Of a stretch of 64,000 bases of DNA, positions 19,973 to 42,972 are shown in pieces. This DNA comes from an uncultured Bacilli bacterium (GTDB lineage Bacteria > Bacillota_I > Bacilli_A > RF39 > UBA660). The notes beneath the pieces were generated by a model, which was not told where the DNA came from, ran no database searches, and saw only the letters and a list, made by a program, of their open reading frames with translations. The first letter of the stretch is position 1, and each line of letters opens with the position of its first letter. The translations under genes and the position numbers were made by a program. Where the stretch lies: assembly GCA_944331895.1 (NCBI GenBank), contig CALVIX010000005.1, positions 42,214 through 106,213 of the forward strand. The letters run 5' to 3'.

Positions 19973-20704
19973 ATGAGTTATAGTGAACAAAGAGAAGTTT
20001 TAATCAAAGAAAGAAGAGAGATGGTTGCAAGATATATTGTAGAGCATCATTGTACGATAAAAGAAGCATATCAACACTTTAAAGAAGACAAAGATCTCAT
20101 GAATATGTTTCAACAATATCGCGTTGGTTTTAGCTTGTCGACGTTAAAAAGAGAGTTAGATCTTCCTTTAAAACAGAGCAATCCAGAATTATTTAAAGAA
20201 GTGAGACCTTTCATCGATGGAAATCGAAACAACGTCTTAACCAATCAATCCATGACGAGGGAAGCATTTGCTCGATTGATTATCGTAAAACGAGACGTTG
20301 AAAAAAAGAGTTTTCGGGTCATTGGAAAAGAATTAGAGTTAGCCGAGACTTCTGTGATTCGTATCTATAGGGATTACGTAGGGAAGGTTGAACTTTCACA
20401 GGAAGATTTAGAACTTGCAAAGAAAAGCGATATGAATCTAAGGCCTCATATTCAGGATAAAGTAGAACAACATCAAAAGGGAATTGAACACCAAATTTTA
20501 TCTTGGGCAAATTATGCATTAGAAACCAAATGTGATTTACCCACACTTTCTCAACATTTTGGTTTAGAAAGACAAAATGTAAAGAATACTTTATCCGAAT
20601 TATTACCGTTGATAGATTATGAGCTATATTTAACTTTACAAGGTCAGTTAGGGTTATGCGACGAACTTTCTTATCAGGAGCAAGCACCAGTTAAGAAAAA
20701 ATAA
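19973..20704 (+). CDS. protein built of three SpoIIID-like helix-turn-helix repeats
   Basis: Three segments each resemble B. subtilis SpoIIID (sequence recalled from memory): IKER..ARYIVEHHCTI...FSLSTLKRELDLPLKQSNPELFKEV; EKKSFRVIGKELELAETSVIR; YALETKCDLPTLSQHFGLERQNVKNTLSELLPLIDYEL. Confidence 0.5.
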   Translation: MSYSEQREVLIKERREMVARYIVEHHCTIKEAYQHFKEDKDLMNMFQQYRVGFSLSTLKRELDLPLKQSNPELFKEVRPFIDGNRNNVLTNQSMTREAFARLIIVKRDVEKKSFRVIGKELELAETSVIRIYRDYVGKVELSQEDLELAKKSDMNLRPHIQDKVEQHQKGIEHQILSWANYALETKCDLPTLSQHFGLERQNVKNTLSELLPLIDYELYLTLQGQLGLCDELSYQEQAPVKKK

Positions 20705-21153: not shown

Positions 21154-21374
21154 TGACGTTAGAACAGCAATTTAAAATAAAAAACAATCCATACTTTCAA
21201 AGGTATTTGAGAGAACATTCTTATTGGTATAAATATTTAAATCGAAATCCTGCTTACTTTGATGCATTTGTAGAGGAAGTAAAAGATACTTATAAATTAA
21301 GACCATCTGATAAAGTCAATCGTATATTGGATACATTGGAAGTACTTCAAACATTGATGTCTACGATGCAATAG
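21153..21374 (+). CDS. ylbE: YlbE-like small protein
   Basis: NPYFQRYLREHSYWYKYLNRNP pattern and synteny. Confidence 0.5.
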   Translation: MTLEQQFKIKNNPYFQRYLREHSYWYKYLNRNPAYFDAFVEEVKDTYKLRPSDKVNRILDTLEVLQTLMSTMQ

Positions 21375-21400
21375 TGTATAATGATGCTGGATGTGATCAT

Positions 21401-21937
21401 ATGAAGATTATCAGTGGAAAGTACAAAGGAAAAGTCTTAAAAGGATTTGATATCGACGGTACGAGACCGACGATGGATCGAGTGAAGGAAAGTATGTTTG
21501 CGATGATTCAAAATCACCTGCAAGATTCAGTTTGTCTCGATTTATTTGCTGGAAGTGGTAATTTGGGATTAGAAGCATTAAGCGAAGGTGCTTCGAAGTG
21601 TTATTTTGTCGATTATAATCCGAAAGCGATTCGAACAATTCGTAAAAATGGTGAGGTTTGTAATGCGCTTGATCATATGGAAATCATTCATAAATCTTAT
21701 CAAGATGCGCTACTATTTTTTCAGCGAGAAAACGTAAAGTTTGATATTGTATTTCTAGATCCACCCTATCAAGCAAATTTGATTTCTACGGTGTTTACCA
21801 TGCTTAAAAAATTAGATCTCTTAAAAAAAGATGCGCTTATCGTATGCGAGTTTGAACATGAAGAGTTAAGCTCTATCTTTCCTCTTTGGAAAGAGCGAAA
21901 ATATGGTTCTAAAAAGGTATATATTTATCGTGTATAG
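21401..21937 (+). CDS. rsmD: 16S rRNA m2G966 methyltransferase RsmD
   Basis: Start at ATG 21401 (MKIISGKYKG). TRPTMDRVKESMF, DLFAGSG and DPPY motifs. Confidence 0.85.
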   Translation: MKIISGKYKGKVLKGFDIDGTRPTMDRVKESMFAMIQNHLQDSVCLDLFAGSGNLGLEALSEGASKCYFVDYNPKAIRTIRKNGEVCNALDHMEIIHKSYQDALLFFQRENVKFDIVFLDPPYQANLISTVFTMLKKLDLLKKDALIVCEFEHEELSSIFPLWKERKYGSKKVYIYRV

Positions 21938-21962
21938 AATGCAAGGAATTGCATTCTTTTTT
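21937..21962 (+). terminator. rho-independent terminator after rsmD, directly abutting the bacteriocin exporter gene
   Basis: GAATGCA-aggaat-TGCATTC followed by TTTTTT. The ORF-track TTG start (21949) lies inside this hairpin. Confidence 0.7.
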
Positions 21963-21990
21963 GTGGAACAATAAAAGTGGAGGTGAAACT

Positions 21991-24087
21991 ATTCGATATC
22001 CATTTATAAAACAACGTGAAGAAAAAGATTGTGGAATTGCATGTTTACAGATGATCATGGCATATTATCATTCTTATGTACCCAAAGAAGAATTACGTCA
22101 ACTTACGCACACGACGAAAAAAGGAACCAGTGCCTATGGTTTATTACAAGGAGCTGAGCAATTAGGATTTCGCGTACGAGCGTTAAAGGGGGACTTTTCA
22201 TCGTTGCAGATGGAACCACTCGCATACCCTGTGATTGCTCATATCGTTAAGGAAAAAGTCTACTATCATTATGTAGTGATTTATAAGATAGACCATAAAC
22301 ATAAAAAAATTTTGATTGCTGATCCTGCAAGTAGATTATCTTGGATTTCATTTCGATCTTTTCAAACGGAATGGAACCATATTATTTTAGTATTAGAACC
22401 GATGTTGCAACTTAGAAATGAAAAAAAGGCATCCATTTTGGAGTTGTGTTATCAAATTGTAAGTCGTTATCGTAAAGAACTTTGCATTTTATTCTTTTTT
22501 GCATTGATTCAAATGATACTATCTCTCATCATTTCCTATTATTTTAAAGTGGCAGTTGATTTTATTTCTCATTTTGGGACAAAGTCTGAATTTTACCTCA
22601 TCTCCGTTTTATTTTTCATGTTTTTCATATTACATCATCTTTCATTACTATTTTATTCTGATGTAATTTTAAAGTGGGGAACCGCCCTCGACCTATCTTT
22701 TACGAAAGATATTTTTCAAAAATTAGTTTCACTTCCATACGATAAATTTGATGGACGATCTACAGGTGAAGTTATGACGTATTTTCAAGAGTTGATGCAA
22801 CTAAAGGAAATTTTGATTACTTTTGTAAGTTCGATCTTGTTAGATATTTTATTTTGTGCTGGTGCACTTCTTATTTTAAGTACGATATCGATGGTTCTTT
22901 TTACTCTATGTTTATGTATGATATTTTCTTATGGGATTGTGTTTATGTTGTGTAAGCGATACTATCAAGTATATATCCCGTATGTCAAAAGAGAGCAAGG
23001 AATCGTATCTCACTGGTTGATCGAGAGCATGCGTGAATATGAGACGGTAAAGGGTTCACACCTAGAACGCGTTTTAAGCTCGTTTTTCGAAAGACATCAT
23101 TATCGCTTTGAAAAGGAAATGTACCATTTGAAACAATTAGAACGCAAAGAACAAGTTTTAGAAGAAACACTTTTGGGAATTATTCGTTTCCTCTTTATTT
23201 TTTGGGGAGGGGTTATGATGTTAAAGCAAGAACTTGCAATCGCTAGTTTTGTATTTGCATATATGTTATTTGATTATATCATCTCGCCCATGAATTCTCT
23301 TTATCGATTTTGTTTAGAATGGATACAAGTAAAGACTGCTGTTTGCGAATTAGCATTTCTATGGAAGAAAAGCGAGAGTGATGGAAAAATTGTATTAACG
23401 GGAATCTCGACGATCGAATTTCGAAATTTAAGTTATGCATATGAAGAAGATATGTGGGTATTAAAAAATATCGATATCGTCTTAAAGGAAAAAGAACATG
23501 TCATGTTATTTGGACCATCTGGAAGCGGAAAAAGTACCTTGTTTCGATTGTTGATGAAGTTTTATCGATGTCGAGGGAAGTTTATTTTTATCAATGCGGT
23601 TGATTATGATCAGTATGAAATGAATTCTTTCATGCGCCATATTTGTTATATATCGCAGAAAGAAACTTTATTTACGACGAATTTGTATGAAAATATTACA
23701 CTCGCACGAGAAGTATCTAAATCTGAGTTCTTAAAAGTATGTCGCGTATGTCAGCTTAATTTTATCGAAAAATTTCAAAATGGATATTATATGTTAGTAG
23801 AAGAAAATGGGAAAAACTTATCTGGAGGACAGCGTCAACGAATCATATTAGCGCGTGCTTTATTATTGCCATGTGAATTTTTGATTATCGATGAAGGACT
23901 CAATCAAGTAGAGGTCACATTAGAGAGAAAAATTCTTCAGGATGTCATGCGATATTATCCTGAAAAGACAATTATTTATATTACACATCGATATCAAAAT
24001 TTTGATTTGTTTTCGAGACTCCTATATATGAGACAAGGTAGGATATTAAAAGATTGGTATCGAGAAAGGAAGGAAATCGTAGATTGA
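21991..24087 (+). CDS. peptidase C39 domain bacteriocin ABC exporter (ATP-binding/permease)
   Basis: N-terminal YPFIKQREEKDCGIACLQMI (catalytic Cys), HYVVIY..ADP (His/Asp), six-TM ABC membrane domain, GPSGSGKST, LSGGQRQR, LIIDEG. Start uncertain: ATT 21991 sits 5 nt after GGAGGTG. TTG 21949 and 21961 lack an RBS. Confidence 0.85.
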   Translation: MRYPFIKQREEKDCGIACLQMIMAYYHSYVPKEELRQLTHTTKKGTSAYGLLQGAEQLGFRVRALKGDFSSLQMEPLAYPVIAHIVKEKVYYHYVVIYKIDHKHKKILIADPASRLSWISFRSFQTEWNHIILVLEPMLQLRNEKKASILELCYQIVSRYRKELCILFFFALIQMILSLIISYYFKVAVDFISHFGTKSEFYLISVLFFMFFILHHLSLLFYSDVILKWGTALDLSFTKDIFQKLVSLPYDKFDGRSTGEVMTYFQELMQLKEILITFVSSILLDILFCAGALLILSTISMVLFTLCLCMIFSYGIVFMLCKRYYQVYIPYVKREQGIVSHWLIESMREYETVKGSHLERVLSSFFERHHYRFEKEMYHLKQLERKEQVLEETLLGIIRFLFIFWGGVMMLKQELAIASFVFAYMLFDYIISPMNSLYRFCLEWIQVKTAVCELAFLWKKSESDGKIVLTGISTIEFRNLSYAYEEDMWVLKNIDIVLKEKEHVMLFGPSGSGKSTLFRLLMKFYRCRGKFIFINAVDYDQYEMNSFMRHICYISQKETLFTTNLYENITLAREVSKSEFLKVCRVCQLNFIEKFQNGYYMLVEENGKNLSGGQRQRIILARALLLPCEFLIIDEGLNQVEVTLERKILQDVMRYYPEKTIIYITHRYQNFDLFSRLLYMRQGRILKDWYRERKEIVD

Positions 24088-24485
24088 ATCTCTCTATCTC
24101 GAAAGGACTTTTTACACTTATCTTGTCGTGGGGAATGATCGTCATCTTTGTGGTTGTTATCGCGTTTTCTGTTCCGTATCAAATGTCACGTTCTTTTGCA
24201 GGAATGATGGTATTGAAAGATTCTGAATATTGGTTGAAAGGATATCTTAGGATAGATGATATTGCTTTTTTTAAAAGTGGCAGTCTTTGGATCGAAAATC
24301 AAGAATATAAAGTTCTAGATCTCATATATACGAATGAAATCGTCGCGGGAGAAGACGGGGAAGTATACCAAGCAATCTTGATTGGAGGTAATTGGAGCAT
24401 GGAATTAAAAGAAAATTATAAAAGTATCGTCGCAGTTTATCGAACAGAGAAAAAAACTTGGGTGCAAAGATATATGAAATGGTAG
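24054..24485 (+). CDS. small membrane-anchored protein in the position of a bacteriocin accessory or immunity protein
   Basis: TTG start at 24054 or 24084, both overlapping the exporter stop. One TM helix (GLFTLILSWGMIVIFVVVIAF) plus a ~100-aa beta-rich domain. No confident family. Confidence 0.5.
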   Translation: MVSRKEGNRRLNLSISKGLFTLILSWGMIVIFVVVIAFSVPYQMSRSFAGMMVLKDSEYWLKGYLRIDDIAFFKSGSLWIENQEYKVLDLIYTNEIVAGEDGEVYQAILIGGNWSMELKENYKSIVAVYRTEKKTWVQRYMKW

Positions 24486-24499
24486 AAAGGAGGAAAGAA

Positions 24500-24655
24500 G
24501 TGGAACATATCAGAAAAGAAGAACTAAGAAGTATCATTGGTGGTGGAGTGAGTACTGGTGTCGGATTGGCACTTGCAGTTACGGCAGGAATTGTTTTTGT
24601 GATCGGTGTGATCGATGGTTATTTAAGACCACTTCTGTGTCACACAAATGAGTGA
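24500..24655 (+). CDS. double-glycine leader bacteriocin precursor, peptide A (51 aa)
   Basis: GTG 6 nt after AAAGGAGGAAA. Leader MEHIRKEELRSIIGG has I-4, L-7, E-8, I-12, M-15 and G-2 G-1. Mature 36 aa: GVSTGVGLALAVTAGIVFVIGVIDGYLRPLLCHTNE, hydrophobic and rich in small-xxx-small motifs. Confidence 0.7.
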   Translation: MEHIRKEELRSIIGGGVSTGVGLALAVTAGIVFVIGVIDGYLRPLLCHTNE

Positions 24656-24821
24656 GTTAACAAAGAAAGAGGCAGTACAGATTTATGGTGGTGTAAATCT
24701 CTCTGGAACGATCGTAACCGCATTTTTGAAAGGGATCGATATTATCTTAGAATTAGGTAGAAACCTTGGGAGTGCGATTCGCAGAATTCAGGATCATAAT
24801 GTCTGTCCATACCAAAAATAG
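24648..24821 (+). CDS. double-glycine leader bacteriocin precursor, peptide B (57 aa, not in the ORF track)
   Basis: ATG inside ATGAGTGA, overlapping the peptide A stop. Leader MSELTKKEAVQIYGG (I-4, E-8, L-12). Mature 42 aa: VNLSGTIVTAFLKGIDIILELGRNLGSAIRRIQDHNVCPYQK, amphipathic and net cationic. Confidence 0.65.
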   Translation: MSELTKKEAVQIYGGVNLSGTIVTAFLKGIDIILELGRNLGSAIRRIQDHNVCPYQK

Positions 24822-24892
24822 AAAATATTAGAGGAAAAGATGCGTTAGAATGCACTTTTTTCTCTTTTTTTGTCACAAAGTCCTTTTTTTTG

Positions 24893-24921
24893 TTGAAATC
24901 TAAGAATACCCGTGTTATAAT
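24893..24921 (+). promoter_or_regulatory. sigma-A-type promoter for rpsU
   Basis: TTGAAA, 17-nt spacer, TATAAT. Confidence 0.55.
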
Positions 24922-24950: not shown

Positions 24951-25148
24951 ATGCCTACAGTAGTTGTGAAAAACGGGAATGTGGATGGAGCATTGAGAAC
25001 ATTCAAACAAAAAACCGTGAAAAATGGCCTCCTAAAAAACATTAGAGATAGAGAGTTCTATAGTAAACCTGGAGAACGACGTAGAAAAGCAAAAAAAGAA
25101 GGAATCAAGAACAGTCGTAGAAGAGATCGTAGAGAGCGCAATAATTAA
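24951..25148 (+). CDS. rpsU: 30S ribosomal protein S21
   Basis: MPTVVVKNGNVDGALRTFK...FYSKPGERRRKAKKE is typical of S21. Confidence 0.9.
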   Translation: MPTVVVKNGNVDGALRTFKQKTVKNGLLKNIRDREFYSKPGERRRKAKKEGIKNSRRRDRRERNN

Positions 25149-25719: not shown

Positions 25720-26259
25720 GTGTATACAATGACAACATCCACTAAAAAGACAAACAGACTAAAAAAAGGAATTTGCTCTAATCGTTGGAATCATTTCGCA
25801 TTACAATATATTGCAGCATATAATGAATTAGGACAGTTCGTTATAAGTCAACCATTCCATACACAGTCACCAAGAATTAAATGTAGATGTCTTCACTGTC
25901 TAGAAGAAATTACATTTCAAAAAGAAGAATTAGAGCAGTTTCAACAAGTATATAGTGATCGAGTAATTGTTCCTGAAAATACAGCGTTTAACCGAATCGA
26001 TCGTTTTTACGAAAACATGAAAATCGTAGGACAACTAGAGTCTCAGTATGGCCTTACGCAAGCGGTGGTTCATGAGTTAAAAGTAAAAAATCAACAACGA
26101 GATATAGAAGAGAAGGTCGACATGGGATTTATCAAAAACAAAAAAGAAGCGAGTGCTCCAGTAGCCAAGACGGAACAGGAGATCGCAGAAGAGAGTAAAC
26201 GATTGTTAATTACCAAAGAAAATTATAGCAAGAGAACGGGTAGCTATTACTCTTCCTAA
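25720..26259 (+). CDS. hypothetical protein
   Basis: GTG start 4 nt after GAGGAGGTGA. Contains KCRCLHC. No family recognised. Confidence 0.5.
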   Translation: MYTMTTSTKKTNRLKKGICSNRWNHFALQYIAAYNELGQFVISQPFHTQSPRIKCRCLHCLEEITFQKEELEQFQQVYSDRVIVPENTAFNRIDRFYENMKIVGQLESQYGLTQAVVHELKVKNQQRDIEEKVDMGFIKNKKEASAPVAKTEQEIAEESKRLLITKENYSKRTGSYYSS

Positions 26260-26275
26260 AAGAAGGGGGGATAAA

Positions 26276-26674
26276 ATGAAATTGAAAGACAAATTGAATT
26301 TGTTTAGAAATTTAATAACGAAAGAGGAATCACCGCAGGAAATATATCCAGACGATATTCTTGCGTGCATAGGAGAATTTTCAGCACCTGAAATGAGTGC
26401 AACGCAAAAATATAGTTTGTATCGTTCCTTGGAAAATGGATTATCGATTTCCTCTGAATTGTATCAAGTTGCTGCAGACAATACTGTAGAACGAGAATTT
26501 CCTTATATTCTTTATCCTGTAGAAGATAGTGTCATGTCTTTATGTGAATTTGAAAACTTGAGAGATCATTATGAAACTTTAAAGCAACAAATTCCAACCA
26601 AGACACAGTATCAACTATATTTGGATATGAAAGAATATCAGAAGAAAAGAAAAACACATCAAAAAATTAGATAA
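26276..26674 (+). CDS. hypothetical protein
   Basis: ATG after GGGGGG. Followed by a hairpin plus T run. Confidence 0.5.
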   Translation: MKLKDKLNLFRNLITKEESPQEIYPDDILACIGEFSAPEMSATQKYSLYRSLENGLSISSELYQVAADNTVEREFPYILYPVEDSVMSLCEFENLRDHYETLKQQIPTKTQYQLYLDMKEYQKKRKTHQKIR

Positions 26675-42861: not shown

Positions 42862-42972
42862 TAAAATTCTATATTGTGTAGTACCTCATGTTGCTACAAC
42901 CGCACGAACCAGGTTATAAACACGTTAGTGTACCTATTAGGCGAGTCTTAGAAAATAAAGAAGGAGGTCAAT
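42862..42972 (+). promoter_or_regulatory. possible L21-leader type regulatory 5' UTR
   Basis: 111-nt structured-looking gap directly upstream of rplU-prp-rpmA, where Firmicutes carry the L21 leader. Assigned by position only. Confidence 0.35.

Follow-up and report, generated by a model that had tools for sequence, protein, structure and literature searches.

In the peptidase-containing ATP-binding cassette (ABC) transporters PCAT1, ComA and LagD, a C39 domain binds the amphipathic leader of the substrate peptide and cuts it after a Gly-Gly pair, and the transmembrane domain exports the product. The position right after the exporter gene is occupied in known loci by LcnD or ComB. Among gut Bacteroidota, the bacteroidetocins are widely conserved bacteriocins with double-glycine leaders, whose mature sequence is highly conserved across genera. 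To our knowledge, almost nothing is known of how RF39, an abundant gut order without cultured members, interacts with its neighbours. This uncultured lineage of gut Bacilli is a relative of the Mycoplasmatales (PMC10868615), and the C39 exporter kept in JCVI-syn3A and other mycoplasmas has no known double-glycine substrate (PMC6609329). Here we describe a block of four co-directional forward-strand genes between rsmD and rpsU in a 64,000-nucleotide stretch of DNA from an uncultured RF39 bacterium (contig CALVIX010000005.1; the whole stretch is referred to as the window). The genes encode an ABC exporter, a small membrane protein (acc) and two peptide precursors (peptides 1 and 2). On the evidence below, the block probably represents a new family of class IIb-like two-peptide bacteriocins, membrane-acting, ancestral and vertically inherited in RF39-type Bacilli.

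The genes and the domains of the exporter are placed as follows (aa, amino acids; nt, nucleotides; ORF, open reading frame).

21949..24087, forward strand: ABC exporter (Pfam C39, ABC_membrane, ABC_tran)
~21997-22401, forward strand: C39 domain of the exporter
~22480-23292, forward strand: transmembrane domain of the exporter
~23461-23898, forward strand: nucleotide-binding domain of the exporter
24084..24485, forward strand: acc, 133 aa, an ORF whose TTG start overlaps the exporter stop (TTGA)
24500..24655, forward strand: peptide 1 precursor, 51 aa, with a GTG start and GGAGG at 24489-24493, 6 nt upstream
24648..24821, forward strand: peptide 2 precursor, 57 aa, whose ATG overlaps the peptide 1 stop (ATGAGTGA)

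Judged by its domains, the window exporter is a peptidase-containing ABC transporter (PCAT) whose predicted protease and ATPase motifs are intact. Pfam searches recovered Peptidase_C39 (PF03412, E 3.5e-37), ABC_membrane (PF00664) and ABC_tran (PF00005), and the protein aligns over its full length with PCAT1 (4ry2, E 3.5e-75) and ComA (8hf4). The C39 Gln/Cys/His/Asp, Walker A, signature, Walker B, catalytic Glu and H-loop are kept in the window exporter and in every one of the 13 other complete relatives (related loci are numbered from L001 upwards), and the Q-loop Gln in 13 of these 14 exporters, L001 having Lys. The best NCBIfam model, TIGR01193 ('peptide cleavage/export ABC transporter'), matched at 346 bits, below its cut-off of 524, and the second best, the mycoplasma C39-ABC model NF045998, at 312 bits. 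Counted from the first TTG (21949) the ORF encodes 712 aa; the true start is probably TTG 21961, which gives a 708-aa product as gene callers report in relatives, or ATT 21991, which is preceded by GGAGGTG.

Both precursors begin with a leader of 15 residues, MEHIRKEELRSIIGG in peptide 1 (24500-24544) and MSELTKKEAVQIYGG in peptide 2 (24648-24692), which by inspection fits the double-glycine consensus of the LxxxELxxIxGG type. Such leaders were defined as 15-30 aa long, ending in GG, hydrophobic at -4, -7 and -12 and acidic at -8. Across 31 relatives of peptide 1 and 119 of peptide 2, the leader follows the pattern M(-15), L/I(-12), E(-8), L/M(-7), I/V(-4), G(-2), G(-1), and AG replaces GG at the cleavage site in a few loci. 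Given this direct sequence evidence and the established behaviour of PCATs, the C39-ABC protein very probably processes and exports both peptides.

The two predicted products are complementary in character and unrelated to each other in mature sequence. Mature peptide 1 (24545-24652; 36 aa, core IGVIDGYLRPLLC) has a grand average of hydropathy of 1.17, which makes it as hydrophobic as a transmembrane segment, and a net charge of -1, the family median being +1. Mature peptide 2 (24693-24818; 42 aa, core LGRNLGSAIRR-x6-C) is strongly amphipathic, with a hydrophobic moment of up to 0.72 and a net charge of +2. In their families, peptide 1 has a median mature length of 31 aa and a C-terminal F[LI]IG[VL]IDG[YF]xRPLKC[NR], and peptide 2 a median of 40 aa and [LV]GRSLGSAIRR followed by Cys six residues on. 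A Cys stands within the last eight residues of every one of the 31 peptide 1 relatives and of 113 of the 119 peptide 2 relatives, and all members of both families contain a GxxxG motif. In the AlphaFold2 (AF2) model of a natural peptide 1-peptide 2 fusion ORF (P0151), each mature peptide forms one long helix (pLDDT ~80). The window peptides have the size and character of class IIb peptides (~25-60 aa, helical, GxxxG, cationic and/or hydrophobic). Co-variation of an extra Cys between the two peptides, suggested by L003, fails, as in L006, L012 and L017 peptide 1 carries the extra Cys and peptide 2 does not.

Searches of Pfam, NCBIfam and the PDB for a known bacteriocin family gave leader-driven or chance matches only. 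Window peptide 1 reached 16.6 bits against TIGR03949 (lactobin A/cerein 7B; cut-off 21.5) and 16.3 against PF10439 (Bacteriocin_IIc; cut-off 27.1). Several of its relatives exceed the curated cut-offs of TIGR01847 (bacteriocin signal) and TIGR03949, and TIGR01847 was reported for neither window peptide. Profiles of both peptides matched nothing in the PDB, and their core motifs were not found in full-text literature. We regard the mature peptides as new because leader-less searches match no family and the PDB profiles are empty.

These results confirm what an earlier sequence-only reading of this DNA had observed, all of it present at the positions given there. It had placed between rsmD and rpsU, now identified by Pfam Cons_hypoth95 and S21, an exporter with intact C39 and nucleotide-binding domains, and the Pfam domains, the full-length alignment with PCAT1 and the catalytic residues agree. 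The small single-membrane-span protein after the exporter is indeed there (133 aa, 24084-24485, one transmembrane helix), as are the two adjacent small ORFs with double-glycine leaders, whose consensus extends across the 31 and 119 relatives. Its mature lengths of 36 and 42 aa were correct, and so was its description of peptide 1 as hydrophobic and of peptide 2 as amphipathic and cationic (+2). Its remark that it recognised neither as a named bacteriocin agrees with the lack of any family match once the leader is removed.

An orthologous block occupies the same place in a metagenome-assembled genome labelled 'uncultured Tenericutes bacterium' (L001). Synonymous divergence (dS) from L001 is ~0.8-1.2 for the block genes, equal to that of neighbouring genes, and the ratio of nonsynonymous to synonymous divergence (dN/dS) is 0.12 for the exporter, 0.25 for acc, 0.095 for peptide 1 and 0.056 for peptide 2. 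All four genes are under purifying selection (dN/dS 0.06-0.25). Chance ORFs or pseudogenes are rejected by these ratios together with the wide conservation of the block.

The block is present in 10 of 10 genomic contexts that encode an identical S21 protein. The named relative is Candidatus Fimihabitans intestinipullorum, of a genus in GTDB order RF39, family CAG-822 (PMC8035907). Word-indexed protein searches returned close relatives only, plus one distant homologue per peptide. A metagenome scan seeded with the peptide 2 alignment, and requiring peptide 2, gave 38 loci at 37-58% identity and one at 89%. Of 1.84 billion cluster representatives, 279 matched the peptide 2 profile at E <= 1e-3; their length is 50-57 aa in nearly every case, and none bears a name. 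In profile searches the longer fetched loci almost always read ylbD-ylbE-rsmD, ABC, (acc), peptide 1, peptide 2, (pep3), rpsU-yqeY, where pep3 is a fifth gene considered below. The genes for peptides 1 and 2 are adjacent in 36 of the 38 loci, the exceptions being credited to prophage. Conservation of the four-gene block, which the sequence-only reading had proposed to check in related genomes, is seen in L001, in the ten S21 contexts and in metagenomic loci.

Between distant loci and the window, identity is 51-60% for RsmD, 54-72% for YqeY, 59-78% for S21, 79% for LepA and 77-84% for S2; it is 26-36% for the full-length exporter, about 20-30% for acc and 40-59% for peptides 1 and 2. From the kept synteny and these identities, the block is, as far as sequence comparison can tell, old, ancestral and vertically inherited in RF39-type Bacilli rather than a strain-specific island, with peptides that change more slowly than their exporter. 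A recent horizontal island is rejected, since the base composition of the block is unremarkable and synteny is kept where neighbouring housekeeping proteins have fallen to 51-84% identity.

Some copies lie outside the rpsU context, for instance beside a MarR-like regulator and another ABC transporter, which points to occasional mobility. One sub-group (L028, 5750-8755; L029; L033) has AG for GG, lacks acc and pep3 and stands outside the rpsU context; the L028 copy is one that adjoins a MarR-like regulator and a second ABC transporter, and the L029, L033 and L040 copies adjoin a conserved protein of ~240-270 aa. Between peptides 1 and 2 lies a gene for a class I S-adenosylmethionine methyltransferase in L012 (L012:597-1283) and for a 150-aa protein in L030 (L030:7568-8020). 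In L040:221-523 (= P0094) a MutS-like N-terminal fragment is fused in frame to the mature part of peptide 2, and P0151 joins peptide 1 to peptide 2 in a single natural ORF of 101 aa. Both fusions could be rearrangements or artefacts of assembly or gene calling.

In most distant loci a further ORF of 45-59 aa, pep3, starts within the final codons of peptide 2 and overlaps its end (L003:3123-3245, L004:1452-1616, L006:8150-8335 and ~17 other loci). Its product has a basic N-terminus, one transmembrane helix and then F..GxxxG[TS]xIR, often with a terminal Cys, and has no leader. Its C-terminal half aligns with the peptide 2 core in profile-profile comparison (hhalign probability 93%, E 3e-7). We read pep3 as a membrane-anchored, leaderless paralogue of peptide 2, as predicted from these features, that stands in the class II immunity position; it is a candidate decoy that would confer immunity by engaging the surface of peptide 1 meant for its partner. 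The window, L001 and L005 lack the gene; only a 10-codon stub, possibly its remnant, is left in the same position. The pep3 profile found no second copy over the 64-kb window, and the window holds no further double-glycine peptides elsewhere. The genus of the window has apparently lost pep3.

The acc protein has one N-terminal transmembrane helix, no cysteine and a beta-rich remainder of ~100 aa that is predicted to be extracellular; its AF2 model is confident in the beta-rich core (pLDDT 74-90). The window protein matched no Pfam or NCBIfam family, and the acc profile gave nothing significant in the PDB. A fold search likewise gave nothing significant, membrane-fusion-protein beta-barrels (Spr0693, MacA; 5xu0, 4dk0, 3fpp) being among the top entries at E 0.2-0.3. 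Within the acc family set (alignment A10, 17 members), none of the 17 matched the HlyD families of Pfam or NCBIfam, and seven of 17 relatives matched the mycoplasma MAG1140 family (NF045999) below threshold, with E down to 1.7e-4, the window acc being unmatched. One of them, the L013 protein (L013:388-846), scored 20.6 bits over positions 4-126 of 126, the cut-off being 35 bits. The gene is missing in L028, L029, L033, L036, L038 and L042.

Because acc is translationally coupled to the exporter gene, sits in the LcnD/ComB position and shows weak full-length similarity to MAG1140, its role is more probably to assist the exporter than to confer immunity. A PedC-type thiol-disulfide accessory is rejected for lack of cysteine. 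The idea of a truncated HlyD beta-barrel stays unproven, the fold and profile searches being non-significant and the HlyD families unmatched.

Prophages have entered peptide 1 in two loci. At L010:6288-8001 a prophage with a large serine recombinase (Resolvase, Recombinase, Zn_ribbon_recom) at its end abuts the last codons of the gene. Alignment with the uninterrupted L008 and L009 (compare L009:2062-2217) places the junction at GGGTATG of the IDGY codons, and host bases supply the stop codon of the recombinase. At L041:3891-7990 a different prophage end, with a tail fibre, a holin-like protein and a CHAP/LysM endolysin, is followed by a peptide 1 remnant ending in GLDGYTRPLACK and a stop codon, and then by an intact peptide 2. 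These two insertions make the most conserved codons of peptide 1 (IGVIDGY) a site of phage attachment in two hosts or more, a further link between phage and system that can be tested. The position of the prophages also suggests that the system is dispensable, unless an unseen junction restores the gene.

A bacteriocin mechanism is favoured by the architecture of the block, by the complementary hydrophobic and amphipathic GxxxG helices, by the gene in the immunity position in relatives, by dispensability and by the occasional copies out of context. Under such a mechanism the C39 domain would bind the leaders and cut after GG, and the transmembrane domain would export the 36-aa and 42-aa products, with acc assisting the exporter from the outer face of the membrane. 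Outside the cell, the hydrophobic helix of peptide 1 and the amphipathic, cationic helix of peptide 2 would pack through their GxxxG cores (G-VID-G and G-RxL-G), and the two may be linked through the invariant cysteines close to their C-termini. The packed pair would then enter a target membrane and make it permeable, in the manner of class IIb bacteriocins. In most relatives pep3 would shield the producer by taking up the surface on which peptide 1 meets its partner; the genus in the window, with pep3 lost, would rely on something else or on lacking a receptor.

Several observations weigh against a bacteriocin. Fixation at one housekeeping site across a deep clade is atypical for one. The peptides diverge about as slowly as RsmD and YqeY, with the exporter and acc changing faster, and this is the opposite of the usual pattern, in which bacteriocin loci diversify. 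The window contains no regulator, pheromone module or immunity gene, and L036 has neither acc nor pep3. All family matches of peptide 1 vanish once the leader is removed, so that its mature region fits no bacteriocin family, and peptide 2 belongs to no Pfam, NCBIfam or PDB family. Finally, the metagenomic counts cover peptide-2-bearing loci and not the frequency of the block among relatives.

The sequence-only reading had called the block a self-contained, class IIb-like two-peptide system and had seen no immunity gene. Its class IIb label keeps the support of architecture, helices, GxxxG and size, and is qualified by the fixed core site, the slow peptides and the lack of a regulator. The four-gene block is as it described, although 'self-contained' fits poorly with the fifth gene of most relatives, lost in the window; likewise, the absence of an immunity gene holds for the window, whereas most relatives have the candidate pep3.

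The alternative that survives best, though we consider it unlikely, is that the exported pair serves the producer itself, either as envelope-associated structural or regulatory subunits or as a kin-recognition signal, together with pep3 where present. Such a role would explain both the housekeeping site and the near-invariant cores, and the system might be the same ancestral one to which the substrate-less mycoplasma C39 exporters belong. Conserved synteny, peptides more conserved than their exporter, presence of the block in all ten close contexts and the lack of an immunity gene or regulator in the window all fit it, as does pep3 as a non-exported, anchored homologue of peptide 2. Against essentiality speak the prophages in peptide 1 in two hosts; acc and/or pep3 are missing in some lineages, and no receptor or partner gene is linked. 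The mycoplasma connection can be argued both ways. The JCVI-syn3A exporter has no known double-glycine substrate (PMC6609329), and the MAG1140 family, to which acc bears a weak resemblance, has the catalogue entry adjacent to that of the mycoplasma C39-ABC family. Yet the MAG1140 matches fall below threshold, TIGR01193 always outscores NF045998 for the ABC proteins, and the adjacency of the MAG1140 and ABC genes in mycoplasmas is inferred from accession numbers alone, NF045999 being numbered directly after NF045998; literature on Mbov_0121 and MAG1140 gave nothing on gene neighbourhood.

A more specific proposal, which we think decidedly doubtful, takes the block for an ancestral exported-peptide system of the RF39/Mollicutes-related radiation, and not for a common bacteriocin island open to exchange. 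The exporter and a MAG1140-like acc would then correspond to the mycoplasma C39 module, and the peptides would form a Cys-joined heterodimer with pep3 as its docking partner or decoy, acting in the producer's own membrane or in kin interactions. If this were true, the substrates missing for the mycoplasma exporters would be expected to look like peptides 1 and 2.

It is improbable that the block encodes two independent one-peptide bacteriocins, or a bacteriocin and an enhancer peptide, that share an exporter without forming an obligate class IIb toxin. The peptides do come from distinct genes with unrelated mature sequences, another gene separates them in L012 and L030, and L010 and L041 keep peptide 2 after the disruption of peptide 1. 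However, the genes are adjacent in 36 of 38 loci, with the exceptions ascribed to prophage, and usually overlap translationally; moreover, both products have invariant GxxxG cores and a C-terminal Cys, and their hydrophobic/amphipathic pairing is typical of class IIb. Quorum-sensing pheromones of the ComC/BlpC/PlnA type are most improbable: leader and exporter do match ComC/ComAB in type, but the block and its flanks contain neither a histidine kinase nor a response regulator, the mature peptides are long, one being as hydrophobic as a membrane-spanning segment, and their cores hardly vary across the clade, unlike pheromones, which diversify into pherotypes.

The boundaries of the block are marked by the following features.

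21374-21937, forward strand: rsmD (Pfam Cons_hypoth95)
21936..21963, forward strand: possible weak terminator or attenuator, a 9-bp hairpin and U-run found by the terminator scan
24799..24831, forward strand: possible pep3 remnant (MSVHTKNRKY, then a stop codon), read from the sequence with low confidence
24830..24872, forward strand: probable intrinsic terminator closing the block, an AT-rich hairpin and then a U-run
24893..24921, forward strand: promoter-like site for rpsU and downstream boundary of the block, TTGAAA-17-TGnTATAAT, 11/12 matches in the promoter scan
24951-25148, forward strand: rpsU (Pfam Ribosomal_S21)

Gene coupling within the block is tight, with overlaps between the exporter gene and acc and between peptides 1 and 2. 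The upstream hairpin (21936-21963; RNA fold -10.6 kcal/mol, z -2.1), also found in L001, lies directly 3' of the rsmD stop and overlaps the earliest possible exporter start. This leaves no space there for a promoter of the block's own, and the block may hence depend on attenuated read-through from ylbD-ylbE-rsmD. The downstream hairpin (24830-24872) folds at -16.3 kcal/mol (z -2.3), and its equivalent in L001 is weaker (z -1.5); the consensus terminator scan made no call for it. Rfam and tRNA scans found no match inside or adjoining the block, and the block contains no modification enzymes.

Elsewhere in the window, a 243-aa protein with two SpoIIID-like helix-turn-helix stretches is encoded just after lepA (19973-20704), followed by ylbD (coat-like) and ylbE; the three are sporulation-related remnants beside the block. 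RF39 is reported to retain part of the sporulation gene set, consistent with these remnants. Between yqeY and rpsB (25720-26674) lie two conserved ORFs of 179 and 132 aa that match no Pfam family and are syntenic in L001 and all close contexts. The sole Rfam match in the window is a ribosomal protein L21 leader (42888-42958; RF00559, 52 bits).

The locus provides a concrete, synthesisable peptide pair from a large unannotated family of at least 279 clusters, whose near-invariant cores imply one conserved molecular target. Should the pair prove antimicrobial, it would found a new family of bacteriocins that evolves in an unusual way: passed on vertically at a site in the core genome, its peptides have changed less than the exporter. 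Immunity may then also follow a new principle, in which the producer anchors a copy of one toxin peptide in its membrane. Should the pair lack such activity, the block would exemplify a housekeeping-like use of double-glycine peptide export and would offer a template for searches around the C39 exporters of mycoplasmas and minimal cells.

Compared with known systems, the window exporter shares with PCAT1 of Clostridium thermocellum (4ry2) and ComA of Streptococcus (8hf4) the domain order of C39, six-helix transmembrane domain and nucleotide-binding domain, and likewise the catalytic Gln/Cys/His/Asp and the ATPase motifs; its similarity to them is distant (257 bits over ~690 residues), and it is paired with an unrelated small accessory. 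The accessory resembles LcnD, ComB and PlnH of the HlyD family in that its gene directly follows, and is coupled to, the exporter gene, and in its N-terminal transmembrane helix and outward beta-rich domain, but it measures ~130 aa against ~450 and has no coiled-coil or lipoyl part. The orphan C39 exporters of mycoplasmas (NF045998, Mbov_0121 family; JCVI-syn3A 0401) come from related host lineages (PMC10868615), yet the window exporter and the acc relatives all score below the curated cut-offs of NF045998 and NF045999. Those exporters are without known double-glycine substrates, whereas here the substrates are evident. Bacteroidetocins offer a precedent for a conserved double-glycine toxin of the gut, but they are single peptides of another phylum and another sequence, with no shared synteny.

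The closest likeness is to class IIb bacteriocins such as lactococcin G, plantaricin EF/JK, ABP-118 and amylovorin L/lactobin A. Unlike these, the peptides described here have mature regions without similarity to them, the matches to TIGR03949 and PF10439 coming from the leader, and carry an invariant single Cys near each C-terminus. The accessory has 133 aa and is not of the HlyD/LcnD type, the gene proposed for immunity is a peptide 2 paralogue missing from the window, three-component regulation is absent, and the locus is inherited vertically at a housekeeping site. Shared with class IIb are two adjacent, presumably co-transcribed genes whose products have double-glycine leaders of 15 residues, a C39-ABC exporter of their own with another membrane-protein gene behind it, and mature peptides of 30-42 aa with GxxxG that are predicted to be unmodified and helical, one hydrophobic and one amphipathic and cationic. 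In most relatives of the block a small membrane-protein gene also lies directly downstream, as in class IIb loci. In conclusion, the block belongs to a known kind of system, in which it forms a new family and an unusual variant; annotation has missed it, though it is widespread in uncultured gut Bacilli.

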